Assembly (NCBI GenBank): GCA_001771505.1
Contig: MEUA01000023.1
Location: 2,346-66,345 of the forward strand
Length of the DNA: 64,000 nt
Reading direction: 5' to 3'
Source: a candidate division WOR-1 bacterium RIFOXYB2_FULL_36_35
GTDB taxonomy: Bacteria > Margulisbacteria > WOR-1 > XYC2-FULL-46-14 > XYC2-FULL-37-10
This document shows positions 27,708-54,893 of the stretch, one piece after another (the stretch's first letter is position 1; every line of letters starts with the position of its first letter). The position numbers were made by a program, and so were the translations under genes. The notes beneath the pieces were generated by a model. It worked only from the letters and a program-made list of their open reading frames with translations. It did not search any database and had not been told where the DNA came from.

Positions 27708-27806
27708 TTATTCATACCCCGAGTAATGTTTGACAATTTGTTGGTTATTGATTCTGACGTGAACCCCGATTATCCTAATCGGGGTGAATAATCGGGGTTA
27801 AATAAG
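27708..27806 (+). repeat. Palindromic repeat element copy F, TTGACA-spacer subtype
   Basis: Contains 60-nt block TGTTTGACAATTTGTTGGTTATTGATTCTGACGTGAACCCCGATTATCCTAATCGGGGT, identical except one base to 54832..54891. Confidence 0.85.
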
Positions 27807-28710
27807 GATTTTTTCTCGTAAAGTCTGGCATAAATTTAATTGTAAGCTGATGGGTTGTATCCAATTCGGAATGAGGGACAAAGGCATAGTCAAATTGAAT
27901 ATTTTTACTGATAAAACCAATGCCAAAAGATATAGACGAGTTATCTGTTTGTTTACTTGTTAGTCCGGATCTAACAAAGAAACTATCTTCAAAACTATAT
28001 TCAATGCCAAAATTTGCAAACATATTATCATCTGATGGCAAATTTAAATCAGCCGCAAAAAGAATATCGTCTAATTTGTAAGAATACCCAACTCCATAAT
28101 TTGATGGAATAGCGGTATTTCCCAAAGATCCTACAATATTTTTTAGTGTGATTCCAAAAGTTCCCTTTGCATTGGCGTTCCACAACATACCAAGGTCAAC
28201 ACCATAGCCGGAAGCATTACTTGTATCAATGGTGTCATTAATTAATTTAAAGCTGCCACCAAGAAACAAATTGTTTAAAACATTGCGCGCGTAGGAAGTT
28301 GCAATAACCAGACTTGCGGGAGAAAAAAATCTTCCTGTTCCTGTGGGATTTGTTGGCGTTGTCTCTTCAATTTGTCCCATGTTTACGTAGTCAACAGAAA
28401 GACCGAGTGTTGACTCCATGACAGGAGAAGAAAAGGCAAAGGATATATAGCTTATCCCCGCAAAATAGTTCATATAAGTTGATAAAATCTCAATTCTTTT
28501 TATTTGAGATAAACCTGAAGGATTCCAGAAAGTCGCGCTTGGATCATCTGAAACTCCAATAAAGGCGCCTCCCATGGCTGATGCTTTTGCATTCCCGTTT
28601 AATTTAAGATAATCTCCAGCAAAAGTTCCAGTTTGAGCGTTTACTCCTATGGAAATACTTTTCATAAAGAAAAGAAAGAACAATAGTAAAATTATTTTTT
28701 TTCTATTCAT
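27775..28710 (-). CDS. PorV/PorQ-family-like (FadL-fold) outer-membrane beta-barrel
   Basis: Signal peptide; N-terminal 'ASAMGGAFIGVSDDPSATFWNPSGL' FadL/PorV-type motif; aromatic C-terminus; directly downstream of a T9SS-type cargo gene. Confidence 0.55.
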   Translation of the reverse strand: MNRKKIILLLFFLFFMKSISIGVNAQTGTFAGDYLKLNGNAKASAMGGAFIGVSDDPSATFWNPSGLSQIKRIEILSTYMNYFAGISYISFAFSSPVMESTLGLSVDYVNMGQIEETTPTNPTGTGRFFSPASLVIATSYARNVLNNLFLGGSFKLINDTIDTSNASGYGVDLGMLWNANAKGTFGITLKNIVGSLGNTAIPSNYGVGYSYKLDDILFAADLNLPSDDNMFANFGIEYSFEDSFFVRSGLTSKQTDNSSISFGIGFISKNIQFDYAFVPHSELDTTHQLTIKFMPDFTRKNPYLTPIIHPD

Positions 28711-28774
28711 ACATTAATTTATAACTTACAAAGAATAATGCGTCGAAGCATTGGCATAATAAATAATTATTTTT

Positions 28775-30391
28775 TTAATCAATAATTGCAATTTTCCCTA
28801 TCTTTTTTACACCGGAACCTCCTATGAAATAAATATAAATGCCTCTTGTAACCCAAGCTCCTGATGAATTTTTACCGTTCCATGTCCAACTTGCCCCTCC
28901 GGTTAATGTCGTTGATGTTACAAGATTCCCTGAAAGCGTATATATACTTATTCTTTCGTCTCCCGACAAACCTTCAAAAACAACACCAGAAGAAGACCCT
29001 GCTGTGTATGGATTTGGATAAGCATATATCGTTTTAGTTGTCGATTCTTGGGTAGAAGAAGATCCAAAACTTAAAGCCGCATAGACGTTTATTTTGCCAG
29101 AGCCATAGTAAGGATCCCATCCCGCAGTTCCTAAATCATCAGCAGAGCTCACAATTTTATTTATAACCTGAGAGTTTGCCCATGTGGAATTTTGAGCAAA
29201 AATCAAGGAGGCCAACCCTGATACAAAAGGAGTTGACATAGAGGTTCCATAACTGTACGCATAAGCATTCCCTTTATAAGTGCTAAGTATATTGCCTGAA
29301 TTTGAACTCCCTCCATCTCCTCCCGGAGCGCAAACATCAACAGATTCATTATAAGTTGAAAAAGACGAACGGTTATTATCAGGACCTATTGAACCTACGC
29401 CTATAACATTTTCATAAGAAGCTGGATATTCAACTGTGGGATCTCCATCATTCCCCGCTGCGGCAACCAGAACACATCCTTTGTTATATGCGTATTGCAC
29501 AGCCTCATTCATACTATCAACAAATGAATATGATCCCAAACTCATGTTTATAACTTTTGCGCCGTTATCGGCTGCGTATCTTACCCCGTCTGCCGTAATA
29601 TCAACAAAACCCATACCTCTGAAATTAAGGACTCTGACAACCATAATTTTACTATTCCAAGAAACGCCAGCAACTCCCTTGCCGTTATTTGTCACTGCCG
29701 CGGCTATTCCGGAAACATGTGTACCATGGCCATCTAGATCTGAAGGATCATTGTCTGAGGCAAAAAAATCCCATCCTTCCCAATCATCTATATAACCGTT
29801 CCCGTCATCATCAATTCCGTTGTTTTTATTGCCAGCGCTCCCCTCAATAGGATTTATCCAGACCTTATCTTGCAAATCTTCATGGGTAAAATCTATACCG
29901 CTGTCAACAACAGCTATAATAACGTCAGAATTCCCTTTGGTTATATCCCAACCATCATTTGCATGAATTAAAGGCAATCCCCATTGTTCATAATAATATG
30001 GATCATTGGGCGTTACAGAAAGTTTGTATAAAGCAAAGTTTGGTTCCGCATATTCAATTAATGGATTTTTATTATAAGCATCTACTATGTCTTTGAGCGA
30101 AGAATTTTTGCTTTCGTCAGCAATCTTTAAGAGTTTTATTTTTTTATTGGAAAGTGTTCTAACAATTTTTAGGTTATTTTGAGAATTAAAAGTATTAATG
30201 GATTGTATAGAAATTAAATCCTTGTATTTTACCAATAACTCCCCTTTTGCAACATCAACATATCGTCTTATCCTTTTATCAAAAAACTTTTCTGTCTGTT
30301 TATTTTCATAAGAAAGATCGTCAGCGTAAGCAAAAGAAAACAAAACAGAGAAAAAACAAGATAATACAAAAAAAAATACTTTTATTTTCAT
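28775..30391 (-). CDS. Secreted subtilisin-like S8 serine peptidase with T9SS type-A C-terminal sorting domain
   Basis: D/H/S triad contexts 'AVVDSGID', 'HGTHVSG', 'GTSMSTP'; C-terminus 'YPNPYTAG...ISIYTLSGNLV...GIYIYFIGGSGVKKIGKIAIID'. Confidence 0.8.
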   Translation of the reverse strand: MKIKVFFFVLSCFFSVLFSFAYADDLSYENKQTEKFFDKRIRRYVDVAKGELLVKYKDLISIQSINTFNSQNNLKIVRTLSNKKIKLLKIADESKNSSLKDIVDAYNKNPLIEYAEPNFALYKLSVTPNDPYYYEQWGLPLIHANDGWDITKGNSDVIIAVVDSGIDFTHEDLQDKVWINPIEGSAGNKNNGIDDDGNGYIDDWEGWDFFASDNDPSDLDGHGTHVSGIAAAVTNNGKGVAGVSWNSKIMVVRVLNFRGMGFVDITADGVRYAADNGAKVINMSLGSYSFVDSMNEAVQYAYNKGCVLVAAAGNDGDPTVEYPASYENVIGVGSIGPDNNRSSFSTYNESVDVCAPGGDGGSSNSGNILSTYKGNAYAYSYGTSMSTPFVSGLASLIFAQNSTWANSQVINKIVSSADDLGTAGWDPYYGSGKINVYAALSFGSSSTQESTTKTIYAYPNPYTAGSSSGVVFEGLSGDERISIYTLSGNLVTSTTLTGGASWTWNGKNSSGAWVTRGIYIYFIGGSGVKKIGKIAIID

Positions 30392-30404
30392 CTTATTTGT
30401 ATCC

Positions 30405-30965
30405 TTATTTATTAATAAGCGCCAATGCTTCTGCTTTTGTGGTGGAATTTTTTCTAAATATTCCCCTTACTGCGGAAGTAACGGTTATTGATCCCGGTTT
30501 TTTTACCCCTCTCATTGACATACAAAGATGTTCCGCTTCTATTATGACAAGGACACCCTGAGGCATTAACTTTTGCATCAAAGTATCCGCTATTTGGCTT
30601 GTGAGATTTTCCTGAACTTGGGGACGTTTTGCATAACCTTCTATTACTCTAACAAGTTTTGACAATCCTGTAACGTTTCCTTTTCTGGGGATATAAACAA
30701 CATGAGCTTTTCCTACAAATGGGACAAAATGATGTTCACAAATAGAGTAAAACGGAATATCTTTTACAATAATCATCTCTTCATGCTGTCCTTGCTTGAA
30801 AATTTTTAAATGCTTGGAAGGATCTTCTTGAATGCCCGAAAAAATTTCAGAATACATTTGTGCAACTCGCTTAGGAGTCTCTTTTATCCCTTCACGGTTT
30901 ACATCCTCTCCAATGGCAAGCAAAATTTCCTTCACAGCTTTTTCTATCCGTTTTTTGTTAATCAT
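30405..30965 (-). CDS. folE: GTP cyclohydrolase I
   Basis: 'CEHHFVPF' and 'HLCMSMRGV' signatures. Confidence 0.9.
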
Positions 30966-31040
30966 TAATTAAATTATATATCAATAACACAATGAAATCA
31001 TCTTGAATTTTCACACTATTTCATGTAGGAAGATTATAAG

Positions 31041-32606
31041 TCAGAATAATCCTATAATATCGCCCTCTTCTGTTATATCCATCTTTTCAGCCGCAGGATG
31101 CTTTGGAAGTCCGGGCATTGTCATTATATTTCCACAATATGCGACAATAAAACCAGCCCCAGCAGAGGGAGATAATTCTCTGACTACTATTTTATAATTA
31201 CAGGGGCGTCCGCACAGTTTTGGATCGTCACTTAAAGAGTTTTGTGTTTTGGCTATGCAAACAGGCAAATTAGAATATCCTGATTTTTCTAGAAATTTAA
31301 GGTCATCTTTGGCTTTATCCGAAAAAATAGCGCCATCTGCGCCGTAAGCCTTTTGTGCAATATGCTCTATTTTTTTATCTATGGACTCTTCTAGTCCATA
31401 TAAATACCTTAATTCAGACTTTCTTTCACAGGCATTAAGAACAGCCTTTGCCAGAGTTATTCCCCCTTCCCCACCCCTATTCCACACATCAGATATAACC
31501 ACATCAACTCCCAATTTTTCACAACGGCCTTTTAATTCATCTAAAATTTCATCGGAATCATTCTCTTTTTTGTTGATTGCAATAAGAAAAGGAAGATTAA
31601 AAAGCCTCAAAGTTTCAACATGTTTTTTTATATTTTCAATTCCGTGGACAATATAGGCTTGATATGTTACAACTAAAACAACCGCGTTTGGCTTTAATCC
31701 TCCTTGGCGGCACTTAATGTCAAAAAACTTTTCTGCTCCCAACTCCGAACCAAAGCCGGCTTCTGTAACTACATAATCAGCAGATTTTAGCGCAAGTTTT
31801 GTTGCTGTCATAGCATTACAGCCATGGGCAATATTTGCAAAAGGGCCCCCATGAACAAAAGCAGGGATACCTTCAATACTTTGCACAATATTAGGTTTTA
31901 AAGCATCTTTTAGCAACAAAGCCATAGCTCCTTGAGCCTTAAGTTCGTAGACTAAGGCGACCTCCCCATTTTTTTTATACCCTATTACAATTTGAGCCAA
32001 CCTGTTTTTCATGTCAGTTAAATTTTCAGAAAGGCACATTATCGCCATGATTTCAGAAGAGGCTGTAATTGAAAAACTTCCACGGAGTGCACGATCATTC
32101 ATGTCCATAACACGATTCCAGACAATTCTGTTTTCATCTAGCATTAAGTCGTTCCCTTGATAAATGTGATTATAAATCATGGCGGTTAAAAGGTTGTGAG
32201 CTGCTGTTACATTGTGTATATCTCCTGTAAAATGAAGGTTGATTTCTTCCATCGGTAAAACTTGTGAATATCCTCCCCCTGCCGCGCCCCCTTTCATCCC
32301 CATAACAGGCCCAAGTGAAGGTTCACGAATACAAATAAATGTTTTTTTCTTGATTTTTTTTAGCCCCTGGGCTAAACCGATTACAGTTGTTGTTTTCCCT
32401 TCTCCTTGAGGAGTTGGTGTAATAGTAGTTACAAGAATTAACTTTCCATCTTTTTTGTTTTGAAGTCTTTTTAACGCGGATAAATTTATTTTTGCCTTAT
32501 ATTTGCCGTAATTTTCTATCTCTTCATTTTTAAACCCTGCTCTTTTGGCAATTCTATCTATTAATTCTATTTTTGATTCCTGGGCTATTTCAATGTCTGA
32601 TTTCAT
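31041..32606 (-). CDS. fhs: Formate--tetrahydrofolate ligase
   Basis: 521 aa; 'PTPQGEGKTTTVIGL' P-loop and FTHFS-wide similarity. Confidence 0.9.
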   Translation of the reverse strand: MKSDIEIAQESKIELIDRIAKRAGFKNEEIENYGKYKAKINLSALKRLQNKKDGKLILVTTITPTPQGEGKTTTVIGLAQGLKKIKKKTFICIREPSLGPVMGMKGGAAGGGYSQVLPMEEINLHFTGDIHNVTAAHNLLTAMIYNHIYQGNDLMLDENRIVWNRVMDMNDRALRGSFSITASSEIMAIMCLSENLTDMKNRLAQIVIGYKKNGEVALVYELKAQGAMALLLKDALKPNIVQSIEGIPAFVHGGPFANIAHGCNAMTATKLALKSADYVVTEAGFGSELGAEKFFDIKCRQGGLKPNAVVLVVTYQAYIVHGIENIKKHVETLRLFNLPFLIAINKKENDSDEILDELKGRCEKLGVDVVISDVWNRGGEGGITLAKAVLNACERKSELRYLYGLEESIDKKIEHIAQKAYGADGAIFSDKAKDDLKFLEKSGYSNLPVCIAKTQNSLSDDPKLCGRPCNYKIVVRELSPSAGAGFIVAYCGNIMTMPGLPKHPAAEKMDITEEGDIIGLF

Positions 32607-32653
32607 TATTAATAAATTCTATCACTCTAGCAAGCTTGGTTCAATATTATATA

Positions 32654-34387
32654 TTACAGATCATCTCGTTGTCTGCGTAAATTCCTTGAAGTTGGATTAA
32701 AACCCTCATCTTCTGGCCCGGAGTTCTTTAATTCTTCTGCGCGATAATCTGAATCTCCATCTGGATTTGGGTTAAGGTCATCTTCAGCCTCTTGTGCCTC
32801 CTCTTCCTCCCCATCGCCTAAAACTATTGTAGTATCATCAAAAGTGCCTAACTCAGTTGGGGTTATATCTGTATCATATATTAACGCTTCTGCATCAATT
32901 TCATCATCCTCGGCTTTTCCCTCTTTTTCCGCATCCGTTTTTACTTCGAGGATTTCATGCTTTTCTCTTTGCCTAAGTATGGTACTCAAGTAATAAAAAA
33001 GCCTTTGATCAAATGTTGAATCAACACCTCGCAACAATGATAAATTTGCAGCTTTTACCATAGAATCGATCAATTCGTTATCTTTCTCAAGACTGTAAAA
33101 AATGTCTGCTGCCGCAAAAAGGCTTTCTATATCACCTTTTATCATATATTGTTCTGCAAGCCTTTCTTTTGCAATAGAATACAAAGCTGTATTTTGCCTG
33201 TTATAAGCCTCAGCCAATAAAACATATGTAGCAAAACTTCTATATCCTAAATCGATTAAAAACTTTAAAGCAAATGTAAAATCCGTAAAAAACTTTACGG
33301 ATTTTTTGTCTGTCCATTCATGAATTGTAGGTTCGTTTAATAAAAATTGCTCATGAGAAAGCGATGGATTTACTTCTAAAGCTTTATCAAAAAAGCGGAT
33401 AGATCTGTTAAATAAAGCTGTAAATTCGTGATTCTCATCTAACTTACATCCTTCATAAATTCTTAAGGCTAAACAAGCAAAGATTGTCCCGCTCAAAAGA
33501 TATGAGTTTGTTAAATCTTTTTTTTCTGAAAAATCATCCTCCGCTAAGATTATTCCTTTTGACTCATTTTCATCAATAGACTGTGCGTGATATTTCAAGA
33601 GCATCTTATTTAATAATGCTAATGCTTCTTCAAGGTTTTCTTCTTTTAATTTTTGTATAATAGCCCATTTTTCAAGTAAATATTCTAAATCAATTTCTTT
33701 TCTTTCATGAAGATCAAAACTAGGTGATAATTCCTTGGCCTTTAAAAATGCTCTCATGGCTCTTCTTAGTAATCTTAATGAATTTGTAGACAACGCTTGT
33801 TTGTAAAAGATTACTCCAATTTTATAATGCTTTTCAGATGCTTTTTCCATGTTGTCACATTTTTCATAAATTAAAGCTGACGAATAAAGGATAAAAATAT
33901 CATCTTCTGGAAGAATATCATTTGCCAAGCTCAGAGATCTAAATGCTTCTTCTTTGTTTCCTAATGAATATAATGCTTCCGCCGCGTCTGCTAACTTATG
34001 GGCTGTATTTACGGCTTTTTCTTTTTCTCCTTTACTCAAATAAGCTCTTCCTAAACCAAAAAGAGCATCCACATGATAAGGTTGTATTTTCAAGACTTTT
34101 AAGAAAGCAACAATTGCATGATCATATTCTTCTGTTATAAAAAAAGCCAGAGCTTCTCGATATAACCTGGAAGAAGGAGGGGTCAATGTTGTAGAAGATT
34201 TAGCTGTTAGGGGTATTGCATGTGGTGAAGGCTGCACAACTTTCTTCCTTGCCCAGCCACCATCAGGGACTAAAGTTACTAATCCGTTATCTTTCCTTAA
34301 AGTTTTTTCTTTAAGAAAAGATCTTAATCCAGGAACTAATAAAGTAACAAAAACCATTGCTCCCTCCCTTAATAGCAGCTTCGGCAA
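32654..34387 (-). CDS. TPR-repeat protein with acidic C-terminal tail
   Basis: Multiple TPR-like helices; C-terminal D/E-rich tail. Confidence 0.5.
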   Translation of the reverse strand: MPKLLLREGAMVFVTLLVPGLRSFLKEKTLRKDNGLVTLVPDGGWARKKVVQPSPHAIPLTAKSSTTLTPPSSRLYREALAFFITEEYDHAIVAFLKVLKIQPYHVDALFGLGRAYLSKGEKEKAVNTAHKLADAAEALYSLGNKEEAFRSLSLANDILPEDDIFILYSSALIYEKCDNMEKASEKHYKIGVIFYKQALSTNSLRLLRRAMRAFLKAKELSPSFDLHERKEIDLEYLLEKWAIIQKLKEENLEEALALLNKMLLKYHAQSIDENESKGIILAEDDFSEKKDLTNSYLLSGTIFACLALRIYEGCKLDENHEFTALFNRSIRFFDKALEVNPSLSHEQFLLNEPTIHEWTDKKSVKFFTDFTFALKFLIDLGYRSFATYVLLAEAYNRQNTALYSIAKERLAEQYMIKGDIESLFAAADIFYSLEKDNELIDSMVKAANLSLLRGVDSTFDQRLFYYLSTILRQREKHEILEVKTDAEKEGKAEDDEIDAEALIYDTDITPTELGTFDDTTIVLGDGEEEEAQEAEDDLNPNPDGDSDYRAEELKNSGPEDEGFNPTSRNLRRQRDDL

Positions 34388-34402
34388 AAAGGGACTAGGA
34401 TT

Positions 34403-35548
34403 TCACTTTCTTTTTAAAAATCTCATAAGTATTTTGGGCTTTTTTAAAACTCCCATAAATACTGATCCAATTGTGGGATATGTCCTTGGGTTTGTTATCA
34501 GACTCCATAAAACAGATGAATGATTCTCAAAATCACCCATATTTTCAATTAATTGCGCATTATCTTTCACATATTCAAATACTTTTTTCAATACCTCTTT
34601 ATCAATGTTTTCCATCGTATATCGCATAAGCAAACACAATCTTATTTCCTTTCCAAATTCTTCTTCCCACTCACGTGCATAGGCTTTTAGATCTTCATTT
34701 TTAATGGCCCTAGCCAATATTTCGGCTGACTTTATGCCATAAAAAATACCGCCTGCAGTTATTGGTTTTACCTGACACGCGGCATCTCCTACTAAGGCGG
34801 CATTCTCTTTAACTAAGTCACATGTTCCTATAGGAACAGGCCCCGCGTTCTTTTCAACTATTTCACCTTTTATGTTACGATCAGCCATAAAACTTTCTAT
34901 CTCATGTATGGGATTATCAGATATAGTGCCTATTCTGACAATGTCGTTTCCTTCCGGAATTAACCACGTAAACAGAGAAAAAGGTTTTATGTAACTTACT
35001 TCAACACGATCTTTATCCGGAATTTCTTTTCTGATCCTGTATTGCAAACCTTTATATAGTTTTATGTTTTCATTTAGTCTTAAAAGTTTACGGACTCTGG
35101 AATATGGACCGTCAGCGCCTACTAAAATGTCTGCATAATACTCTCCGTTAGTAGTTATAACATTGTAACCTGCTCCCACTTTTTCTATTTTTTCTGCCTT
35201 AGTGTTAAATTCTATGTCTAATCCTTCGCTTAGGCTCTTATCAAATTCAGCCCTGTCGATAATATAAGCAACCGAAGGTCTTTTTAAAAGAAAAGCAGAA
35301 CCATTAAAAACGACTTTTGCACCGTCAATTTTGTTCAAAATGGATTTTTTGGGAACAGGGATAATGGTATCTGAAAAAACATCTTTCCCAACAATTCCGG
35401 CACATGAAACAGGACGCCCAACTTCAGAATGTTCCTCAAGTAAAAGAGGGTTAAATCCATAATGTTTTAACATTTGTCCCAAATAGCAACCAACAGGCCC
35501 TGCTCCAACAATTACAATTTTAGGAGGTTTATCATCTTTTTTTATCAT
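34403..35548 (-). CDS. FAD-dependent oxidoreductase, geranylgeranyl reductase family
   Basis: 'IVIVGAGPVGCYLG' dinucleotide fold; GG-reductase-like length and architecture. Confidence 0.6.
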   Translation of the reverse strand: MIKKDDKPPKIVIVGAGPVGCYLGQMLKHYGFNPLLLEEHSEVGRPVSCAGIVGKDVFSDTIIPVPKKSILNKIDGAKVVFNGSAFLLKRPSVAYIIDRAEFDKSLSEGLDIEFNTKAEKIEKVGAGYNVITTNGEYYADILVGADGPYSRVRKLLRLNENIKLYKGLQYRIRKEIPDKDRVEVSYIKPFSLFTWLIPEGNDIVRIGTISDNPIHEIESFMADRNIKGEIVEKNAGPVPIGTCDLVKENAALVGDAACQVKPITAGGIFYGIKSAEILARAIKNEDLKAYAREWEEEFGKEIRLCLLMRYTMENIDKEVLKKVFEYVKDNAQLIENMGDFENHSSVLWSLITNPRTYPTIGSVFMGVLKKPKILMRFLKRK

Positions 35549-35600
35549 AATAACAATAAAACATTATAACACAATTTTTTTTATGCTTTACTGCATATTA

Positions 35601-35668
35601 ACTAACCCGATTATCATAATCGAGGTTAGTTTCTGGTTTTACCTTGAATAATCAGGGTTAACTTTATG
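35601..35668 (+). repeat. Palindromic repeat element copy G (double-hairpin, degenerate)
   Basis: ACTAACCCGATTATCATAATCGAGGTTAG ... GAATAATCAGGGTTAAC. Confidence 0.7.
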
Positions 35669-36658: not shown

Positions 36659-36680
36659 ATTTCTTGAAATATTGACCGGT

Positions 36681-37121
36681 TTATAAATTATTGTGATTTT
36701 CGATTCTTATACTATCCAAATATCCCTGCAATATTAAAACAGCCGCTGTTTTATCAATAATCTTGCGCCGTTTCTTTTCTGAAATATTTGCTCCCGCAAA
36801 AAATTTGTTCGCTTCAGCTGAAGTTAGTCTTTCATCCCACGTTTTTATTTCAATATTATTGAAATATTTTTTCAGCGCTTCGACAAATTTTAAGACTTCT
36901 TGCGCTGCAATCCCAATTTCTCCCGACATTTTCTTTGGCAACCCAACTACAATCTCTCTTATTCCTTCATATTTTTCAATAATTTCTTTGAGGTTTTCAA
37001 TATCATTTCTAAAGGTTTTGCCTTTTTCTAATGTGCTAATCCCCTGAGCTGTAAAGCCTAATGGATCACTCACAGCAATTCCGATTCTCTTTGTCCCAAA
37101 GTCAATGCCTAAAATTCTCAT
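36681..37121 (-). CDS. ruvX: Holliday-junction resolvase-like RuvX/YqgF
   Basis: 'ILGIDFGTKRIGIAVSD' RNase H-like start, 146 aa. Confidence 0.85.
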   Translation of the reverse strand: MRILGIDFGTKRIGIAVSDPLGFTAQGISTLEKGKTFRNDIENLKEIIEKYEGIREIVVGLPKKMSGEIGIAAQEVLKFVEALKKYFNNIEIKTWDERLTSAEANKFFAGANISEKKRRKIIDKTAAVLILQGYLDSIRIENHNNL

Positions 37122-37122
37122 T

Positions 37123-40394: not shown

Positions 40395-40433
40395 CTCTTT
40401 TCTCCTTTTAATTTAAATGGTTTAACCCCTTTC

Positions 40434-40533
40434 AACCCCGATTATTCACCCCGATTAGGGAATCGGGGTTCATGCCTAAGGATTTTCTGAGCAGCCTACT
40501 AGAATTCTGTTCGTCCATGAATAATCGGGGTCA
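40434..40533 (+). repeat. Palindromic repeat element copy H, long subtype
   Basis: CAACCCCGATTATTCACCCCGATTAGGGAATCGGGGTTCAT ... CTAGAATTCTGTTCGTCCATGAATAATCGGGGTC. Confidence 0.85.
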
Positions 40534-43462: not shown

Positions 43463-43521
43463 CTTTTGAAATGATAAACCCCCACACCAAAAGTTTTTTG
43501 ATGTGGGGATATATCAAAAAC

Positions 43522-44127: not shown

Positions 44128-44196
44128 TTTTTTCCTCCCAATAAAATAAAGAATTCAAAACCAAACGACAAACTCCTGACTAAATCACCTCCTTGA

Positions 44197-45087: not shown

Positions 45088-45166
45088 TGTTGCAAATTAT
45101 AACATTACATATTTCTATTGCCAAGGGAAAAAAGGGGAAAAAATGAAATTATGTCTATTTCTTCGC

Positions 45167-45307
45167 GATAAATAACTATAGGGTCTGTTGCAAAATGGTC
45201 ATTCCCGTGAAAACGGGAATCCATTTTTCAGAAAACAAGATAGATCCCCGTTTTCCTGCCTGCCAGCAGGCACGGCGCGGGGATGACAAATTGCATTTCG
45301 CAACAGT
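45167..45307 (+). other. Inverted-repeat element (arms CTATAGGGTCTGTTGCAAAATG / CATTTCGCAACAGTCCCCTATAG) enclosing a 95-nt GC-rich multi-hairpin core; candidate structured ncRNA or miniature insertion
   Basis: Arms pair over ~20 bp; core has nested stems ATTCCCG/CGGGAAT, ATCCCCG/CGGGGAT, GCCTG/CAGGC, GTCAT/ATGAC; ~55% GC in a ~33% GC background; an empty-site-like copy at 59806..59847. Confidence 0.4.
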
Positions 45308-45315
45308 CCCCTATA

Positions 45316-45334
45316 GGATAATCGGGGTAAAAAC
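45316..45334 (+). repeat. Solo tail fragment of the CCCCGATT repeat family (GGATAATCGGGGTAAAAAC)
   Basis: 8 nt after the IR element; 34 nt before the start of 45368 ORF. Confidence 0.5.
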
Positions 45335-45367
45335 ATAGCCAGGGATTAAAAGGAGAAGAGAGATAAG

Positions 45368-46897: not shown

Positions 46898-46936
46898 TAG
46901 AACTATAAAATACCATTATTTGAGGGGATACATAGA

Positions 46937-47875
46937 ATGTTTTCAAGAAAAGTAGTCTCTTTTAATTTAGATGTTATTTCCGCAAAAAAGCCGATAACCA
47001 ATCTACTAAAGGCTATTAATACTTTAGATGTAAACGATCAAGCAAAATTTGACAGTTTATATGAGGAAATGAAAGAGTATGGATTTCCATTTACTAGATC
47101 GGCTCTTAAGAGAGTCATTTCAACCGGAGATATAAAAAGTGATGATCATCCTGTACAACAACTATTAAGAAGCCTTGCCCCTGCTAAGCCTAAAGTTGAT
47201 AAGCCTAAAAAAGGAAGCAGTGGAGCTATCGAACGTCCTCAACCTTCAGATCAAAAGTTATTACCTAGAGAGATAACAATGAATACAATATTAAAGATTG
47301 TCCTAAAATTTTGTGATAATTCCTGTACCTCATTAATTAATAAGGCAAAAGCTTCTTATATAAATGAACCTTCAAAAGATTATTTCACAAGTCCACCTCT
47401 TTTAACCGCTTCAAGAATACTAAAATTAGCCCTAAAAGAGAAAAAGCTTTTATCTTTTCTGGAAAATATCCTAAAAGACTATTCTAATAATAGAGAATTG
47501 CAAGACATTATAACCTTTGTAAAACAAAATAAAGAGATTATTTATTCCTGGGGAGAAATGGAACCAAAAGGGGATCCTTATTATTGTTTTAACGCAGATG
47601 AAATGAAAATAATACAAAATGTTTCCTTGTCTTCTTCGTTATCATCGATTTTTGGAAATGTTATGGATATAGAGGCAATTTCATTAATAATAGGAATAGA
47701 TATTGATATTTCAGAAAATGGAAGAACAAGAGTAGATAACCTTATTAGAGAAGCAATAAGAGTTGGCAAAATAAAAAAGGTTATAAGATATATAAGAGAG
47801 GTATATCCCTTTAACCCAGAACTTAAAAGCCTTGAAGCTCTGGTAGAAAATTCAAGATTATCTAGTGATATTTAA
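46937..47875 (+). CDS. Hypothetical protein, paralog of 45368..46897 (shared N-terminal domain 'KVVSFNL...GFPFTRS')
   Basis: N-terminal ~90 aa alignable to the upstream gene; K/P-rich linker; helical C-terminal region. Confidence 0.5.
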   Translation: MFSRKVVSFNLDVISAKKPITNLLKAINTLDVNDQAKFDSLYEEMKEYGFPFTRSALKRVISTGDIKSDDHPVQQLLRSLAPAKPKVDKPKKGSSGAIERPQPSDQKLLPREITMNTILKIVLKFCDNSCTSLINKAKASYINEPSKDYFTSPPLLTASRILKLALKEKKLLSFLENILKDYSNNRELQDIITFVKQNKEIIYSWGEMEPKGDPYYCFNADEMKIIQNVSLSSSLSSIFGNVMDIEAISLIIGIDIDISENGRTRVDNLIREAIRVGKIKKVIRYIREVYPFNPELKSLEALVENSRLSSDI

Positions 47876-48572
47876 TAAGTGTCAAATATAAAAAATTCGG
47901 CAGAGCTACCTGTCTCTTTATCCTATAAGGTTCTGTAATTAACCTGTAAAGCCACTCTATGTAAAGTTTTTGAACCCATTTAGGTGCCCTTTTTTTAATT
48001 CCTGAAATAACATCAAAACTCCCCCCCACCCCAACTGCAACTTTTACTCCTAACTTATCTAAATTTTTGCAGAGCCATTTTTCCTGTTTCCCCGCCCCCA
48101 AACCCGCAAATATAATATCTGATTTTGATTCTTTTATCCGAGAAAGGATTTCATCATCATTATCAAAATAACCATCATGTATACCCGCAATATTTAATGC
48201 GGGAAATTGTCTCTTTAAATTTTGAGAGGCCATGGAGACTGAAAGTTCTGTGCCACCTAAAAGGAAAACCCTCCATCCTTTTTCAGCCGCAAGCCTGCAC
48301 GAGGACAGAAGAAAATCTATTCCAGTAACACGCTCTTTTAATGGGACTTTTTTAATTCTGCTTACGACAACCATTGAGATACCGTCAGGCAAACGTAAAT
48401 CAGCTCCGTTTAATATATCAAAAAGCTCTTTGTCTGTTTGGGCCGCAACTATCATTTCCGGATTTGGGGTGACAATTAAATGAGGCTTTCCCGAGACGAT
48501 GAATTCTTCAAGCTTTTGTAAGGATTCCCACAGTGTTACATTGTCTATTTTAATGTTTGCCAGGGTTATCAT
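47862..48572 (-). CDS. WecB/TagA/CpsF-family glycosyltransferase (N-acetylmannosaminyl-type transferase)
   Basis: 236 aa; family-typical 'LVTPNPEM' and 'RVTGIDFL' regions. Confidence 0.75.
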   Translation of the reverse strand: MITLANIKIDNVTLWESLQKLEEFIVSGKPHLIVTPNPEMIVAAQTDKELFDILNGADLRLPDGISMVVVSRIKKVPLKERVTGIDFLLSSCRLAAEKGWRVFLLGGTELSVSMASQNLKRQFPALNIAGIHDGYFDNDDEILSRIKESKSDIIFAGLGAGKQEKWLCKNLDKLGVKVAVGVGGSFDVISGIKKRAPKWVQKLYIEWLYRLITEPYRIKRQVALPNFLYLTLIKYH

Positions 48573-48593
48573 TTAAGGGGTATTATATCCTTT

Positions 48594-49190
48594 TTACAGT
48601 CCTGAAAATTCAGCAATCCACATTCCAATGCCTGAATGTATAAAACTTATCGCGATAGCAGCAAGGATAATAGTCATAATTCTTCCTATAATCATAGCTC
48701 CATTTTCCCCAAGAGTTTTAAAAATTCTTTCGCCAAAAGACAAAACCAAAACAGAAAGCATAAAATTTATTGTGACAGCAGTTAAAGCAATCGGAGTTCC
48801 GTAAGTTGCCAATGCCACCATAGCTGTCGTAATAGCGCCAGGGCCAGTCAATAATGGACAACCCAAAGGAACAACTCCAACTTCGATTTTTTCTTTTGCC
48901 TGAAACAGTGACCCTCTAACTAAGATAATAATTGCTATAACCAAAATCAATAACCCGCCCGCTATCTTAAAATCAGACATTTGAATCCCAAACAAAGTTA
49001 ATATAAAGTTGCCTAAAAACATAAATATTATAAGCAATGCAAATGAAAAGATCGCGGCGGTTAAAAAGGCTTCGTGCCTCTCTTTTTTATCCAAATCTTT
49101 TGTTATGCTGTAAAAAATAGGCAGATTTCCTATCGCGTCGGTGATTGCAAAAAGTTGCCCCACAACTATAAGCAGGATAGTTAAATTCAT
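48594..49190 (-). CDS. MarC-family (UPF0056) membrane protein
   Basis: 198 aa, 6 TM, MarC-like N-terminal 'AITDAIGNLPIF'. Confidence 0.7.
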   Translation of the reverse strand: MNLTILLIVVGQLFAITDAIGNLPIFYSITKDLDKKERHEAFLTAAIFSFALLIIFMFLGNFILTLFGIQMSDFKIAGGLLILVIAIIILVRGSLFQAKEKIEVGVVPLGCPLLTGPGAITTAMVALATYGTPIALTAVTINFMLSVLVLSFGERIFKTLGENGAMIIGRIMTIILAAIAISFIHSGIGMWIAEFSGL

Positions 49191-50224
49191 CTATTAACTC
49201 CTTTTAAAATATCAAAATTCTTTAAAGCTTTTTCACGAAACTCTTTTTTTATCCTTTTGATATTATTCTTGATTTTTTCTTTTTTTTGCAACGTTTCTAT
49301 AACAATTTTCGTTAAATCATCAAGATTGTTAGGTTTTATGGCAGGAAGATTGGCTTCTTCCATAAAAGAAGAGACTTTCGGATCATAGGTTATCCCTATC
49401 GCAGGAACAAGATGATTTGTCGCAAAAATTAGAGAGTGTAATCGTGTGCCTATAACAAGATCCACCTGAGAAATTATTTTCATTATTCCTTCAAAATTAT
49501 CATGATCTCCCTTTAGTTCGGACTTTTGTTTCATTTTGTGCATTATATTTACACATGAATGGATATCATCTCTCTGATGAAACGGGATGAAAATTATTTT
49601 AGCTTTTAATTTTTTTACTAAATTATCACATATATCAGCAAATTTTTGTTCAAAATTTGAGGGCATATCTTTAAATCTTCTTGGACATATGGCTATGGTT
49701 AGAGAAGTTTTTTGTTTTTTTGTTTTATTCTTTTGTTTTGTAATTTTTGTATTCTTTTTTATGTTGTTTGCTTCTTCTTTGTCAAAAATAAAAGTCGGAT
49801 CAGCCGTCATTATAATTTTAGGTCTTTTCAGTTTTAAGGATTTTACAAAGTCATAAGAGTTTTTGTCTCTCAACGTGATAATATCTGCCAAGTTTAAAGT
49901 TGATTTTATTAATTTAATATTTACTTTTTTCTTAATAGGCCCTATGCTTTGCGCGAAAACAATTACTTTTTTCCCAAAAAACACTTTTGCTGCCCATATT
50001 AAACTTGTATAATAAAGAAGGCTGCGAGTGCTGGTTGCGTCCTGAAGAAGCCCCCCACCGCCGCTTATTAATACATCTGAATTTGAAATAGCTTTTAAAT
50101 TAAGACGATTATGAGCATCAAGAACAGAAATTTGATGATTCTTAAAGCCCTGTTTTATTGCGGCCAAAATCGCTTCATCCCCTGCATTTCCATATCCATA
50201 ATAACCAGATATTGCTAGTTTCAT
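49187..50224 (-). CDS. csaB: Polysaccharide pyruvyl transferase (CsaB-like)
   Basis: 'ISGYYGYGNAGDEAIL' N-terminus typical of the PS_pyruv_trans family; 345 aa. Confidence 0.7.
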   Translation of the reverse strand: MKLAISGYYGYGNAGDEAILAAIKQGFKNHQISVLDAHNRLNLKAISNSDVLISGGGGLLQDATSTRSLLYYTSLIWAAKVFFGKKVIVFAQSIGPIKKKVNIKLIKSTLNLADIITLRDKNSYDFVKSLKLKRPKIIMTADPTFIFDKEEANNIKKNTKITKQKNKTKKQKTSLTIAICPRRFKDMPSNFEQKFADICDNLVKKLKAKIIFIPFHQRDDIHSCVNIMHKMKQKSELKGDHDNFEGIMKIISQVDLVIGTRLHSLIFATNHLVPAIGITYDPKVSSFMEEANLPAIKPNNLDDLTKIVIETLQKKEKIKNNIKRIKKEFREKALKNFDILKGVNR

Positions 50225-50230
50225 AATGTT

Positions 50231-52198
50231 TTAAACCTTTCGGCTTTTTATTAAAACGATAACGGCACTTAATCCTATCACAAGCCCCAAAATTATTCCA
50301 TTAAAAGACCTTACAACAGATACTATAACAGGAGTATGAATGTGACAGTAAGTATTCAAAAAAGATACAGGGCCAATTATCCCAATTGGCAAAAGGATTG
50401 GAAGCCATTTTGTTTTTCCTTTTAAAAATAAAAATGCAGAAACAATTAAAAAAGGATAACCAATCAAAAATTCTTTCGTTCGAGGCCTTATAACAAGCGC
50501 TTTTTCCATGAAAAGACGAAAAACTTTTTCCGCATGCGGGACAGGAAGCGTAAAGTTCCCTGATCTTGCTATAAAGATAAATAACACCCCAAGAGATGTA
50601 AGTCCCAATAAAATGATCCAGATAGGAATGGAAGCCTTGAATATGTTGAAAATTCTTTCTTTAGAGGCTTTTATGTCAAAACCATTTTCTGTTTTGAAAA
50701 AGAAATAAACCGCTGTTATTAAAACTGGAAGTACAAGGGCAATTTTTATCCCCATAAACACTTGTGATCCCATCATAAAAACAGTATTCGACAAAAGGCC
50801 AAGTATTAGAATAATGCCTAAAACTGTGCATATAATGACATTTAAAAAAATAAGAAGAATATCCAATAAAGTTTTTCCCCATCGTTGATCGATTGGTCTT
50901 TGATCTCTTGAAAATTGAGATATCACCGCATATGATGGAAATACTATCGCAGACAAAAGAGCTAAAATTTTTACTAAAATAAAATCTCCCAATTTCATTC
51001 CGATTATCGGCATTAAACCAACTGATATTATCAAAATAATCCAAGCTAGCCAACCTGAAATACAAATAAAATAATTCAATAAAAATAAAAATCCAATTAT
51101 CACCCCTACCCCAAGTAAAATAATTTGCCATCCCGAAGGTTCAAAATTTACAGGCGCTGATGCTCTCCCTATATTAAAACCTGAGGTTTTTATCTTATTG
51201 TTTATGTAAGATATATAATTAAGATTATACAAAACAGGATCAGCAGCTTTAAGCTCGGGAGGAAAAAAAGGTCTAAGATAAAGGAGTCTAACCCCTCTTT
51301 CTTTAACAGCTCTAACCATCCTGTCTACCGCTTCTTCACTTGTTAATTTTTTTATCTCATTTTTCGGAATGCTATGAACGCGAACAATATCTAACCCCAT
51401 CAGCTTTTTTAGCTTTGTATCACCCTCTTGTTTTATTATTTCTATATTTCCATATTTTATGTTATTTGCTTTTAAAGCTTTTGACAAAGAAACGATGCAA
51501 TCAGGGGCTCCCGCGATATCTTCTCCGTCAAATATTATGGTATCAAATTTCTTAAGCAAATTTACTTTATGAATAATTCTGTTGTTTGTGTACCTTGAGT
51601 CATTCCATATCCTCGGGATAATTCTAAAACCTTTTTCCTTTATTTCTTTTTCCAGGGTTTCTGAAAATCCTATCCCGACCTCATCAAGAGCTGCCTCTTT
51701 CTGGTTAAGAAGCAGGGTATTTTTTGAAACAATCTTCCCCACTCCTGAATCGGTTATTGTCGAAATATTGTCCGCTATCCTATTTAAAATACCAGCGTTT
51801 TTAGCAATTAAAAAAGTTTGTTCTTTTTCAACTTTTCTTTCTTTCACAAGTTTTGAGATTTTAGGGCTTTCGGTAGGATTGTTTTTCAAGCCTTGTCCTG
51901 TTACATAATAAATTTCTCCGTTTATGTTTGCCTGGGGCAAAGTCTCCTCTTTTATCCCTATGGATATAATCCCTCTTTTTTTTATTTCTGTTAAAAGGTT
52001 ATCGAGTGAAACTGTTTTATGCTCCTCATTTTTAATTGAAGACAAAACCATTAAATCATCATAATCCATTACAAGCTCAACTGTTTTGCTAGATGATTCT
52101 ATGTTGTGTCGCACAAAAACAAGGTAAGAACCCGTTAAAATAGCTATTGCTAAGATTATTAATAATAGGACTTTTGTTAGTTTGTTCATTTTTTTCAC
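50231..52198 (-). CDS. Large polytopic membrane protein (possibly DUF5693-like, csaB-associated)
   Basis: 655 aa; N-terminal periplasmic-looking domain plus >10 TM helices; gene immediately upstream of csaB. Confidence 0.4.
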   Translation of the reverse strand: MKKMNKLTKVLLLIILAIAILTGSYLVFVRHNIESSSKTVELVMDYDDLMVLSSIKNEEHKTVSLDNLLTEIKKRGIISIGIKEETLPQANINGEIYYVTGQGLKNNPTESPKISKLVKERKVEKEQTFLIAKNAGILNRIADNISTITDSGVGKIVSKNTLLLNQKEAALDEVGIGFSETLEKEIKEKGFRIIPRIWNDSRYTNNRIIHKVNLLKKFDTIIFDGEDIAGAPDCIVSLSKALKANNIKYGNIEIIKQEGDTKLKKLMGLDIVRVHSIPKNEIKKLTSEEAVDRMVRAVKERGVRLLYLRPFFPPELKAADPVLYNLNYISYINNKIKTSGFNIGRASAPVNFEPSGWQIILLGVGVIIGFLFLLNYFICISGWLAWIILIISVGLMPIIGMKLGDFILVKILALLSAIVFPSYAVISQFSRDQRPIDQRWGKTLLDILLIFLNVIICTVLGIILILGLLSNTVFMMGSQVFMGIKIALVLPVLITAVYFFFKTENGFDIKASKERIFNIFKASIPIWIILLGLTSLGVLFIFIARSGNFTLPVPHAEKVFRLFMEKALVIRPRTKEFLIGYPFLIVSAFLFLKGKTKWLPILLPIGIIGPVSFLNTYCHIHTPVIVSVVRSFNGIILGLVIGLSAVIVLIKSRKV

Positions 52199-52335
52199 AA
52201 GATCAACACCCTGCCTCCTTTCAAACTTTTTTTCTGATTTTTTACATCTGAAGGGTCTGTGTAAATTTTTTAAAGTTTTATAATAATATCATAAAAAAAG
52301 TGAAATTTTTATATATTATGTTGCGATAGTGCATA

Positions 52336-52378
52336 AACCCCGATTATTCGCCCCGAGTAGGAAGGATAATCGGGGTAA
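52336..52378 (+). repeat. Palindromic repeat element copy J (double-hairpin, short)
   Basis: AAACCCCGATTATTCGCCCCGAGTAGGAAGGATAATCGGGGTAAAC. Confidence 0.8.
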
Positions 52379-52426
52379 ACTCTGATGACAAATCGGAGTC
52401 AAATAAAAATAATAAAGGAGTTTTTT

Positions 52427-53827
52427 ATGTCAACAAATACTATAGATTATAAACGAGTAACACCAATGCAAGCGTATAAATGGGCAGCTTCTGGAAAACT
52501 TAAGACAGGGCTCATTGGGCCAAATGACAAAATTAGGACTTATATACCTCCGTATGATCCTGCAATGCTTTTGTTTGCAACTCTTTGTAATAAGCTTGGT
52601 GAAGCAATAATAAAAAGAAGCCCTTTTTTAAGTTGCGGATATGATGAAATGCCAACGGATTTTTATAGTAGGAAACCTTTAAAAAAGGCAGATGATATCG
52701 TTTCTAAAAACATAGAGTTACAAACATCAGAAGGCCAGCCGTTTAATCTTACAAAATTAACCAAAGGATCAAAGCCTAAATCGGATGATTGGAAAAATGC
52801 GAGTATAATATGGGGACCAGGGCTAGGAATTAGATGGGCTACCGGACTTATGGGTACAAGCATAGGAAAAACCCCTGTACTGCAACGGCTGCTAGATAAA
52901 AGCGCTACTGTGTACACAATCGATCAGCCATGGATCGATTCAAATCAAAATTATCCCTTAAGCAACATTAATGAATCGGAAGTTTTGGCAAGGAGATTTT
53001 ATCCCTCTTTTGCAGATTGGGCATTGGCAAACAATTTAGATGAAAATCCCGTTATATTTATGGATCACAGCATGGGAGTTACAAACCTGGAAATACATCT
53101 TTCGATTTATTCTGATATAATAAAAAAAGATCCCAGATTAAAGAAATTGTTTGCGACAAGGCTCTCTTTTGGAACTCCATTTCCAATGGTTGACGGACTT
53201 ATGATGCTTCTCTCTCTTGGCGAGCCATTGTTAGAAAAGATAGGATTAGATTATTTTGACTATCCCGGATTAGGCCCTTTAGTAAAAAAACTTGGCATAC
53301 AAAAACCACTTACAAATAACCCTTTAAATCTTGGCGCTTTTTCTTGTGAAACTCTGCCCTCAGAGTTAATAGATGAATTTTTTGAGCATGCTGTAGCCCC
53401 CTGGTCCAGAAACCAGCTAAGATTTTTCAGGTTAGGTGCGTATCGTGGCCATTTTAGTTATTTAAATAAGCCTCAACCTTTTTGGCCTGGGATGCTGAAT
53501 GTAAATTTTATGGGGACGCGCGATCCTTTAGGTTCATTTTTTGGAGCTTTGGCATACCAAATGCCTCAGCCGCAAAGCATAAGAGATAAAACTTCTTTTA
53601 TAAACGTTGATAGAAGTTTGCCTCCAAGTACGAACTATATATTAGATAACTTAGACGCTATAAACTATATTGTTATTGATCCTGCTACCCATCTTGAGCT
53701 TTTGTGCGCAGGCCCTTCTATTTTTGAAAATTTTATCTGGCCTACAACAGAAGCAATAATAGATTCTATAGTTAATGCTAAGTTGCTAGCAAATAATAAT
53801 GTAAAAAGGAATCAGTTTTATGAATAG
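52427..53827 (+). CDS. Hypothetical protein (possible alpha/beta-hydrolase-like 'DHSMG' elbow)
   Basis: Start moved to ATG 52427 after AAGGAG; no firm domain assignment. Confidence 0.4.
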   Translation: MSTNTIDYKRVTPMQAYKWAASGKLKTGLIGPNDKIRTYIPPYDPAMLLFATLCNKLGEAIIKRSPFLSCGYDEMPTDFYSRKPLKKADDIVSKNIELQTSEGQPFNLTKLTKGSKPKSDDWKNASIIWGPGLGIRWATGLMGTSIGKTPVLQRLLDKSATVYTIDQPWIDSNQNYPLSNINESEVLARRFYPSFADWALANNLDENPVIFMDHSMGVTNLEIHLSIYSDIIKKDPRLKKLFATRLSFGTPFPMVDGLMMLLSLGEPLLEKIGLDYFDYPGLGPLVKKLGIQKPLTNNPLNLGAFSCETLPSELIDEFFEHAVAPWSRNQLRFFRLGAYRGHFSYLNKPQPFWPGMLNVNFMGTRDPLGSFFGALAYQMPQPQSIRDKTSFINVDRSLPPSTNYILDNLDAINYIVIDPATHLELLCAGPSIFENFIWPTTEAIIDSIVNAKLLANNNVKRNQFYE

Positions 53828-54716
53828 GATATCAGTCATTGAAGACTCAGGTTTTTTTGGCAAGATATTCAGATCAAAAGATGTTGAGAATAATTCTTCT
53901 TTAGCCTTTGATTCAGAGCTTGATAAAATCAAAAAATCAGGAAAGACCCAGGCAGAAAAAGTTGAAGATTACTGTAAACTGGCGCTTAAAGAATCTGCTG
54001 CAAAAAGAAGACAAAACGCTATAAAAGCCTTTAGCTTCGCGCTGAAAGCCGTCCCGGGTCCTCTTTCTGACTCTGAAAAAATATTTGCTGGAGTTTTAAA
54101 AGATCAGAAAATAAAAAATCATGAGGAACTGATCAGTAATTGTCTGCATTTAATAGCAGGAGAAATGGCAAAGACCAATCTTTCTGTTCATGATATGACA
54201 TTTATTTCTGGAGGCTCACTTGATAAATTTGAATTCCAGTTTATCCTTGTACAGGAACTTTCAAACGCGTTCCGTTTTAATGAGAGTCTTAAAATTGCCA
54301 TAAAAATGGATGATGGCGCGTTACCGCAGAAAATCAAAGCTTTTACCTATTTAGCTTCAAAGGCAGAGGGCCAATCTGCGCATATATTATTTAACAAAGC
54401 TTTGAAGCTGGCAAGGTCATGCAATGTCAATTATCTGAAAGCTGATTTTGAAGAAGAGATAATCATACAAATGGCTGAATCAGATTTGTTTAATGACGCG
54501 TTAAGAGCAGCATTAAAAATTGAAATTATCAGCAACAAGGTCTCTTCTTTATGCGGGATAGCCGTTGTTATGAATGAAAAGGGTTATGCTGAAAGCGGGG
54601 AAAAAATACTTAACATGGCAAAAAAAATCGTAGAAATTGTAAGCCGATCAGATGCTAACCTTAACCGGTTAATTGAAAGTGCGGAAAATCAAATAAAAAA
54701 ACAATCTTCTTCTTAA
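53820..54716 (+). CDS. Hypothetical alpha-helical repeat protein
   Basis: ORF overlapping the upstream gene by 8 nt; helical repeat character. Confidence 0.4.
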   Translation: MNRISVIEDSGFFGKIFRSKDVENNSSLAFDSELDKIKKSGKTQAEKVEDYCKLALKESAAKRRQNAIKAFSFALKAVPGPLSDSEKIFAGVLKDQKIKNHEELISNCLHLIAGEMAKTNLSVHDMTFISGGSLDKFEFQFILVQELSNAFRFNESLKIAIKMDDGALPQKIKAFTYLASKAEGQSAHILFNKALKLARSCNVNYLKADFEEEIIIQMAESDLFNDALRAALKIEIISNKVSSLCGIAVVMNEKGYAESGEKILNMAKKIVEIVSRSDANLNRLIESAENQIKKQSSS

Positions 54717-54740
54717 CCCCGATTATCCTAATCGGGATTA
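54714..54740 (+). repeat. Palindromic repeat, single-hairpin copy K1 (TAACCCCGATTATCCTAATCGGGATTAAAATT)
   Basis: Perfect 9-bp arms CCCCGATTA/TAATCGGG(A). Confidence 0.75.
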
Positions 54741-54813
54741 AAATTAAATTGCTATATCTTTTATATTGGTTGAATTCTTTGAAAAAAGTATACGATAATA
54801 TATTGACCCCGAT

Positions 54814-54893
54814 TATTCATACATCGAGTAAATGTTTGACGATTTGTTGGTTATTGATTCTGACGTGAACCCCGATTATCCTAATCGGGGTTG
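54814..54893 (+). repeat. Palindromic repeat element copy K2, TTGAC-spacer subtype
   Basis: 60/60 nt identical except one base to copy F (27732..27791). Confidence 0.85.

Follow-up and report, generated by a model that had tools for sequence, protein, structure and literature searches.

Two short repeat copies, termed F and K2, lie 27 kb apart in a 64,000-nt stretch of DNA from the candidate division WOR-1 bacterium RIFOXYB2_FULL_36_35 (contig MEUA01000023.1, positions 2,346 to 66,345). This whole stretch is referred to here as the window, and positions are those of the window unless a contig is named. F and K2 are quite probably two copies of a subfamily, S2, of a non-autonomous transposable element bounded by terminal inverted repeats (TIRs), i.e. 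a bacterial miniature inverted-repeat transposable element (MITE) family, and not a promoter cassette. The TIRs, CCCCGATTATTCA / TGAATAATCGGGG, are 13–17 bp in length and are found in F and in most family members. The elements show a modular plan, which consists of a left arm (L-arm), CCCCGATTATTCA(TA), an interior of ~45 nt, a right arm (R-arm), (TA)TGAATAATCGGGG, and an optional palindrome of 20–21 nt situated just inside the right arm.

The sequence that drew attention to these copies is a 37-nt stretch, TGTTTGACRATTTGTTGGTTATTGATTCTGACGTGAA, which has exactly two sites in the window, 27727–27763 (no mismatches) and 54833–54869 (one mismatch, A/G); the expected count from 100 dinucleotide shuffles is 0.00. 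Together with the hairpin downstream of it, CCCCGATTATCCTAATCGGGG(T), it makes up a shared block of 59 nt at 27727–27785 in F and 54833–54891 in K2, with identity at 58 of the 59 positions. The near-identical block of 60 nt described in the initial annotation is thus real and is not expected by chance. Its coordinates were right to within 1 nt for K2, but those for F (27732–27791) were shifted by 5 to 6 nt. The block is also not the spacer of a repeat, as it had been termed, but the inner region plus the inner hairpin of a TIR-bounded element of 84–96 nt. A degenerate hairpin, CCCCGCTTATTCATACCCCGAG / CCCCGATTATTCATACATCGAG, had been placed upstream of both copies. The sequence is present there, but it does not form a separate hairpin: the two halves pair at five of six positions in K2 and at none in F, and they are reinterpreted as the left TIR with the start of the internal region. 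Pairwise alignment of F and K2 shows a common unit of ~85 nt that runs from ACCCCG (27701 / 54806) to CGGGGT (27785 / 54891). It has four substitutions and one indel (~94% identity), all in the left 25 nt, and the similarity ends abruptly on both sides.

F displays the complete modular plan. Its left flank, TTAA (27698–27701), is by direct reading of the sequence a putative target-site duplication, the junctions being TTAA/CCCCG...CGGGG/TTAA. The flank is followed by the L-arm, CCCCGCTTATTCATA (27702–27716, plus strand), which in single-strand folds pairs with the R-arm as an outer stem of 16 bp. The S2-specific internal region (27717–27763, plus strand) carries TTGACA at 27730–27735 and the first TGAA at 27760–27763; it is predicted to be unstructured and has no promoter-like site. 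The inner 21-nt palindrome, CCCCGATTATCCTAATCGGGG (27764–27784), has TGAA/TGAA flanks and appears to be a nested mini-element, as there are S2 copies without it (termed S2b). The R-arm, TGAATAATCGGGG (27785–27797, plus strand), and the right flank, TTAA (27798–27801), complete the element. Folded as single-stranded DNA, F has the arms as the 16-bp outer stem, the inner palindrome as a 9-bp hairpin and an unstructured interior, with z-values of -4.2 and -4.7, and the RNA folds are similar.

K2 begins with the flank TTGA (54803–54806), which is a non-palindromic direct repeat, and the L-arm CCCCGATTATTCATA (54807–54821, plus strand). The S2 internal region (54822–54869, plus strand) reads TTGACG at 54836–54841 and contains no promoter-like site. 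The 21-nt palindrome (54870–54890) forms the right end of K2, a short form without the outer R-arm. The right flank, TTGA (54891–54894), lies 3 nt before the GGAG Shine-Dalgarno sequence (54898–54901) of an NTP-transferase gene whose start codon is TTG at 54911.

In the family as a whole, the ends are inverted repeats, CCCCGATTA(TTCA)/(TGAA)TAATCGGGG, and members are 21–96 nt in length, multicopy, dispersed and without open reading frames (ORFs). The palindrome CCCCGATTA-NNN-TAATCGGGG and its half-sites are found at ~15 intergenic places in the window, which has a GC content of 35%, and none are expected by chance. Two subfamilies, S1 and S2, each occur in three lengths: a 71-nt core (L-arm, 45 nt and R-arm), a long form of 95–96 nt (the core plus the inner palindrome) and a short form of 82–84 nt that extends from the L-arm to the inner palindrome and has no outer R-arm. 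S1 has the recurring interior ...GACGAACAGAATTCTAG...TGTTGGAAATTTTCCCAGG..., which is equal in length to that of S2 and has TGTTGG in common with it, but the two interiors are only ~40% identical by a hand count on the alignment. A common origin of the S1 and S2 interiors is not claimed at this level of identity.

Additional S2 copies were sought in metagenome contigs, given L numbers here; in total ~170 kb of sequence was examined. Scanning with a 21-mer of the S2 interior gave 12 loci, 11 of which are S2 copies, and the 21-mer scan together with an nhmmer search of the ~170 kb yielded 10 distinct S2 sites. Besides F and K2 these are s3 (L005:3155–3249), s4 (L007:4400–4569), s5 (L010:416–510), s6 (L009:676–772), s7 (L011, ending at 6340), s8 (L015:2800–3006) and the two S2b copies, which lack the inner palindrome (L005:7995–8065 and L007:1079–1149). 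S2 neighbours are unrelated housekeeping genes: aroE, the chorismate synthase gene aroC, ksgA, a Ser/Thr kinase gene, yceD, a methyltransferase gene, dprA and the NTP-transferase gene. The S2 21-mer had no matches in a collection of representative genomes in which the species itself is not represented, a scan of the same collection for relatives of the downstream NTP-transferase gave no confirmed matches, and the 71-nt core form had none in a scan of viral contigs.

F and K2 had been taken for a directly and recently duplicated, or gene-converted, pair. S2 numbers at least 10 copies, however, and by a hand reading of the alignment each differs from the S2 consensus by one to four private changes in a star-like pattern. 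F is an S2-long element (96 nt) of a TAATG lineage in common with s3, s5 and S2b. K2 is an S2-short element (84 nt) of a TAAATG lineage; both TAAATG and the absence of the R-arm are also found in s7 and s8. Since the two belong to different sub-lineages, long and short, neither was copied from the other. These data also bear on the proposal that the repeats are static and are kept alike by gene conversion or homogenisation, with no transposition. That copies separated by 27 kb differ at a single one of 59 nt agrees with such a process, as does the lack of insertion polymorphism in population contigs (see below). Homogenisation does not account for the difference in form between F and K2, for the four substitutions and one indel in their left 25 nt and their separate sub-lineages, or for private mutations that are distributed in a star-like manner.

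Target-site duplications, proposed earlier as something to look for around each copy, are present: TTAA/TTAA at F and TTGA/TTGA at K2. Matching flanks are found, by our own reading, in all 10 S2 copies (TTAA five times, TAAA twice, and TTGA, TTCA and TGAA once each), where two of the matches hold only if a 1-nt deletion in one arm is allowed for in s4 and two mismatches in the left arm are allowed for in s7. Among 34 curated elements of the family, 21 have identical 4-nt flanks, the permutation mean being 6.2. Non-palindromic direct matches account for 12 of these (mean 1.8), and non-palindromic inverted matches for none (p<1e-5). The 34 curated pairs were picked by eye, and the count was therefore redone with every arm pair spaced by no more than 140 nt, 64 in total: 26 of the 64 have matching flanks versus 11.0 expected, with 17 non-palindromic matches versus 6.5 (p<5e-5). 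Just one of the 64 pairs has matching tetranucleotides at the next-outer position. The flanks obey the rule T-N-N-A, with TTAA preferred and TGAA, TTCA, TTTA, TAAA, TCAA and TTGA also found. As the T and A of TNNA never vary, duplicated lengths of 2, 3 and 4 bp are indistinguishable from sequence. Together with the flanks of F and K2 themselves, the family-wide statistics agree with the earlier proposal that the block is part of a mobile repeat that was amplified recently.

The flanks are also pertinent to a second explanation, whereby the palindromes are repetitive extragenic palindromic (REP) sequences and the 71–96-nt units are REP doublets (REPINs) that move in the form of single-stranded hairpins, the enzyme being a REP-associated tyrosine transposase (RAYT) of IS200/IS605-like type. 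Several properties fit: the palindromes are short, extragenic, GC-clamped and dense (the 64 kb hold 12 clusters as well as lone arms), the inverted doublets form long hairpins around an unstructured spacer, and the mosaic arrangement recalls bacterial interspersed mosaic elements (BIMEs). IS200/IS605-type single-strand transposition makes no target duplication. The flank tetranucleotides here co-vary within copies and differ between copies, which a fixed cleavage or target tetranucleotide cannot yield. No RAYT was seen, among just ~170 kb. Sizes of 71 and ~95–110 nt are like those of Pseudomonas fluorescens REPINs (PMC3116915). The lack of a transposase and the oddness of a 21-nt element as a DDE substrate, both discussed below, leave this explanation some weight; overall it is judged unlikely.

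Further indications of mobility as MITEs come from nested insertions. In copy s4 (L007:4400–4569), an S1 core with TAAA/TAAA flanks lies inside the S2 element at L007:4424–4494, where an intact S2 reads GAGTAAATG. The S1 core stands between GAGTAAA and TAAATATTTGAC and TAAA is duplicated, the corresponding intact S2 sequence being GAGTAAATGTTTGAC. The inner palindrome of the long form is flanked by TGAA/TGAA, and the S2b and S1 core copies have an uninterrupted TGAATAATCGGGG at this position, which represents a paralogous empty site; the S2b copies without the palindrome read ...TGAA-TAATCGGGG. In s8, the S2 interior is interrupted by a member of a second repeat family. Gene conversion can create neither nested insertions nor 4-nt flank duplications that are specific to individual copies, and the view of the repeats as static, homogenised sequences is considered very improbable.

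The initial annotation suggested that the TTGACA-like hexamer may deliver a -35 element to downstream genes, and more generally the 60-nt block might be a selected functional module such as a portable -35 or promoter, a small RNA, a terminator or a protein-binding site. TTGACA is indeed kept in nine of the 10 S2 copies, the hexamer being lost in s7. It lies ~55–65 nt from the right end, and therefore its -10 partner always falls inside the element; 17 nt downstream of TTGACA the sequence is TCTGAC in all copies, which does not provide a usable -10. A scan for sigma-70-like promoters found no site inside F or K2 on either strand, and a scan for intrinsic terminators found none in the two copies. 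Only five of eight copies face a gene start. No gene start follows the other three: F is directed into the 3′ end of an antisense gene, and the genes on either side of s5 and of s8 are convergent. The delivery of a -35 element is thus not borne out.

Nor does the block appear to be part of a gene or of a structural RNA, which had been named as the finding that would speak against a repeat. In an Rfam search over the window only tRNA-Met, at 20924, reaches the gathering score; at the copies the best sub-threshold hit is RgsA with 18 bits versus 88 for gathering, there is none at K2, and the interior is predicted to be unstructured. The near-identical S2 copies give no covariation for an RNA test. 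In addition, the sister subfamily S1 agrees with S2 in ends and length and has a largely different interior. The position of K2 speaks for a function. Promoter-like sites (TTGAAT-18-GATAAT, 54770–54799) lie upstream of K2, and the 5′ leader of the NTP-transferase gene therefore probably includes this copy. An RNA fold predicted for the leader (54860–54915) has the UUCU of the element paired with the ribosome-binding site, GGAG (z -2.8), and a translational effect of the pairing is possible. Taken as an explanation of the block, selection for a function of this kind seems scarcely credible.

Sequences from the natural population and from one relative were compared with the window. Proteins identical to those of the window are found in the Rifle groundwater WOR-1 metagenome-assembled genomes RIFOXYA2_FULL_36_21, RIFOXYB2_FULL_36_35 and RIFOXYD2_FULL_36_8. 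Contigs with these proteins are 99.98–100% identical to the window; each one that spans F or K2 has that element, and there is no indel at any element. The insertions are therefore fixed, and the earlier description of them as very recent does not hold. Homologues of DprA fall from 100% to 62% identity, the nearest others being from Margulisbacteria or Saganbacteria at 62% or less. A syntenic relative (L026, ENA ERZ27254748 k141_226201) has genes for GTP cyclohydrolase I, a subtilase, a PorV-like protein and DprA in the order found in the window, its DprA being 62% identical. The porV-dprA spacer is 78 nt in this relative versus 190 nt here. Neither an F element nor any family members (CCCCGATTA repeats) were found in the 13 kb of L026. 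Its porV-dprA spacer holds different small hairpins.

A plausible mechanism would be as follows. A transposase supplied in trans would make a staggered cut at TNNA and join both ends of the element, as DDE enzymes typically do. A DDE-type enzyme is favoured because single-strand transposition by Y1 enzymes (IS200/IS605, RAYT) leaves no duplication. The IS5, IS701 and IS1380 families of insertion sequences (ISs) make 4-bp duplications; this is a lead only, and no family is assigned. In the simplest reading, any inverted arm pair would be usable as ends, which would lead to the mosaic of forms. The 21-nt palindrome would represent two arms back to back, and the long form of 95–96 nt would have arisen when such a palindrome entered the TGAA of the R-arm. 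Recent amplification from master copies, and not selection on a function of the block, would then account for the 60 nt being nearly identical.

A more tentative extension, possible but doubtful, is that the 21-nt palindrome CCCCGATTA-NNN-TAATCGGGG is itself a transposition unit. Two ends of ~9 nt, back to back, would insert at TNNA with duplication, also into the TGAA/TTCA of larger relatives, and the forms of 34–96 nt would arise by combinatorial use of ends. If true, the palindrome would be among the smallest duplication-generating mobile DNAs described, and there would be a transposase, possibly of unusual type, able to process ends that are 1–3 bp apart.

Several points weigh against the interpretation of S2 as a MITE subfamily. 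The ~170 kb yielded no transposase or autonomous element with these TIRs, the Pfam screen being limited to genes adjoining elements. Arm pairs 400–4000 nt apart with matching flanks enclose ordinary genes (aroE and an ORF of 324 amino acids without Pfam domains) and no transposase. A 21-nt element whose ends are separated by 1–3 bp fits poorly into a classical paired-end DDE complex. In 15 of the 34 elements the left flank is TTAA, a palindrome for which a duplication and an extension of the stem are indistinguishable, and 13 of the 34 elements have no perfect duplication. The population contigs display no presence/absence polymorphism, and so no orthologous empty site is available from a close relative. 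The additional S2 copies were found via an exact 21-mer, which inflates the apparent identity. That the S2-bearing contigs come from one genome is an assumption, based on common repeat families and common metagenomes (Ga0208246 holds both K2 and s4).

Other family members in the window illustrate the range of forms. S1 occurs as a 71-nt core with TTAA/TTAA flanks (6845–6915, minus strand), as a 95-nt long form with TCAA/TCAA flanks (40436–40530, minus strand) and as two 82-nt short forms, one flanked by TGAA/TGAA (5750–5831, minus strand) and the other by TTAA/TTCA, with one mismatch (59688–59769, plus strand). Two solo mini-elements of 21 nt are present: one adjoins the TAA stop of the ORF 53820–54716 and has TTAA/TTAA flanks (54717–54737), and the other has the non-palindromic flanks TGAA/TGAA (57045–57065). 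A 53-nt form, composed of a hairpin, 23 nt and an R-arm, adjoins the TAA stop of the ORF 7645–9111, with flanks TTAA/TTAA (9112–9164, plus strand). A second 53-nt form is degenerate (35605–35657, plus strand). There are also a 34-nt form made up of an arm and a hairpin, with a single difference between its flanks (15354–15387, minus strand), and a 38-nt form with TAAA/TAAA flanks (52338–52375, plus strand).

A second, unrelated inverted-repeat family has the ends (CTATAGGG)nCTGTTGCRAAATG ... CATTTYGCAACAG and is found in the window at 45170–45320 and 59800–59850. It consists there of a copy of ~122 nt (45185–45306) and one of 42 nt (59806–59847), with four arm matches versus 0.21 expected. It is also present at L015:2860–3000, which is inside the S2 copy s8, and in L005 at ~3255–3290. 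This is probably another MITE family. The gene directly downstream of s3 (L005:3477–4031) encodes a protein with an ORF6N/Rha-like phage regulatory domain, and may mark a prophage or mobile region. The ENA contig L003:1–5043 (NODE_904) matches the window only from 48863 onward, with the break inside the MarC gene; upstream of the break it has instead a gene for an LVIVD/Ig-like surface protein of 1855 amino acids. The break represents either a strain rearrangement or a chimeric assembly.

The insertions appear to have left traces at the ends of genes. A PorV-like outer-membrane ORF (27775–28710, minus strand) terminates inside F as ...NPYLTPIIHPD*, its last eight residues being encoded by the element. 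By manual translation without the element and one TTAA, the ORF would end as ...NPYLKIPQYWN*, and that of the relative L026 ends as ...IKNLSRFNR*. The F insertion thus appears, from these readings, to have replaced the last codons of the PorV-like gene. Several elements adjoin TAA stops that form part of the TTAA flank (9109–9111 and 54714–54716), which suggests that stop codons are natural targets that are preserved by the duplication. At K2 there are 7 nt between the end of the hairpin and the GGAG of the NTP-transferase gene. Such effects on the host may be by-products of transposition; among them would be stable transcript hairpins, stop codons that TTAA targets supply or preserve, the change at the 3′ end of the PorV-like gene at F, and the hairpin that K2 sets 7 nt upstream of a ribosome-binding site. 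Assemblies are affected as well. Contigs L020 and L025 end at window position 27749, inside F, and L024 ends at its edge, 27801; these repeats fragment metagenome assemblies of the organism.

The idea of a spacer that delivers promoters gives way to the picture of a lineage-specific MITE family that occupies about a quarter of intergenic regions in a Margulisbacteria/WOR-1-like genome. Its repeats break metagenome assemblies, rewrite gene ends, as in the PorV-like ORF, and set strong hairpins beside ribosome-binding sites, as at K2. The clean TNNA duplications, the nesting and the 21-nt mini-forms provide a compact natural data set on the minimal size of a transposable substrate, and the element ends offer a sequence handle for locating the responsible transposase in candidate-phylum genomes. 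Independent transposition of the 21-nt palindromes would be of greater interest still.

Bacterial MITEs are a known kind of selfish DNA, and the family to which S2 belongs is a new member of that kind. Similar to the Correia/NEMIS elements of Neisseria, the ERIC/IRU elements of enterobacteria and the RUP of pneumococcus, the elements described here are non-coding, ~70–100 nt in length and bounded by TIRs, and have short target duplications. They also share with these MITEs the many dispersed intergenic copies, the presence of subfamilies and length variants, the capacity to be co-transcribed and the folding into hairpins. The Correia/NEMIS, ERIC/IRU and RUP elements are IS630-type MITEs with a TA target, whereas the flank here is TNNA with 2–4 bp duplicated. 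Other differences are that members are found down to 21 nt, that ends are used combinatorially to give long, short and core forms, that no parent IS was found in the sequence examined, and that the host is an uncultured WOR-1/Margulisbacteria-like lineage.

The REP, REPIN and BIME sequences associated with RAYTs (PMC3116915) resemble the family in having extragenic palindromes, inverted doublets of 71–110 nt that form hairpins, and mosaic clusters. REPINs are thought to move as single strands via a Y1 transposase, without target duplication (PMC3116915). The co-varying direct flanks found here, which are statistically strong, set the family apart from them.

A further likeness lies in a neighbouring phylum, the Margulisbacteria being sister to the Cyanobacteria. 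The small dispersed repeats SDR4–6 of Nostoc and other cyanobacteria, reportedly described by Elhai et al. in 2008, are said to be 21–27 nt in length, hairpin-forming, apparently mobile, and nested in other repeats and in MITEs. By description, they resemble the 21-nt forms in being very small, nested hairpin repeats of a related lineage.

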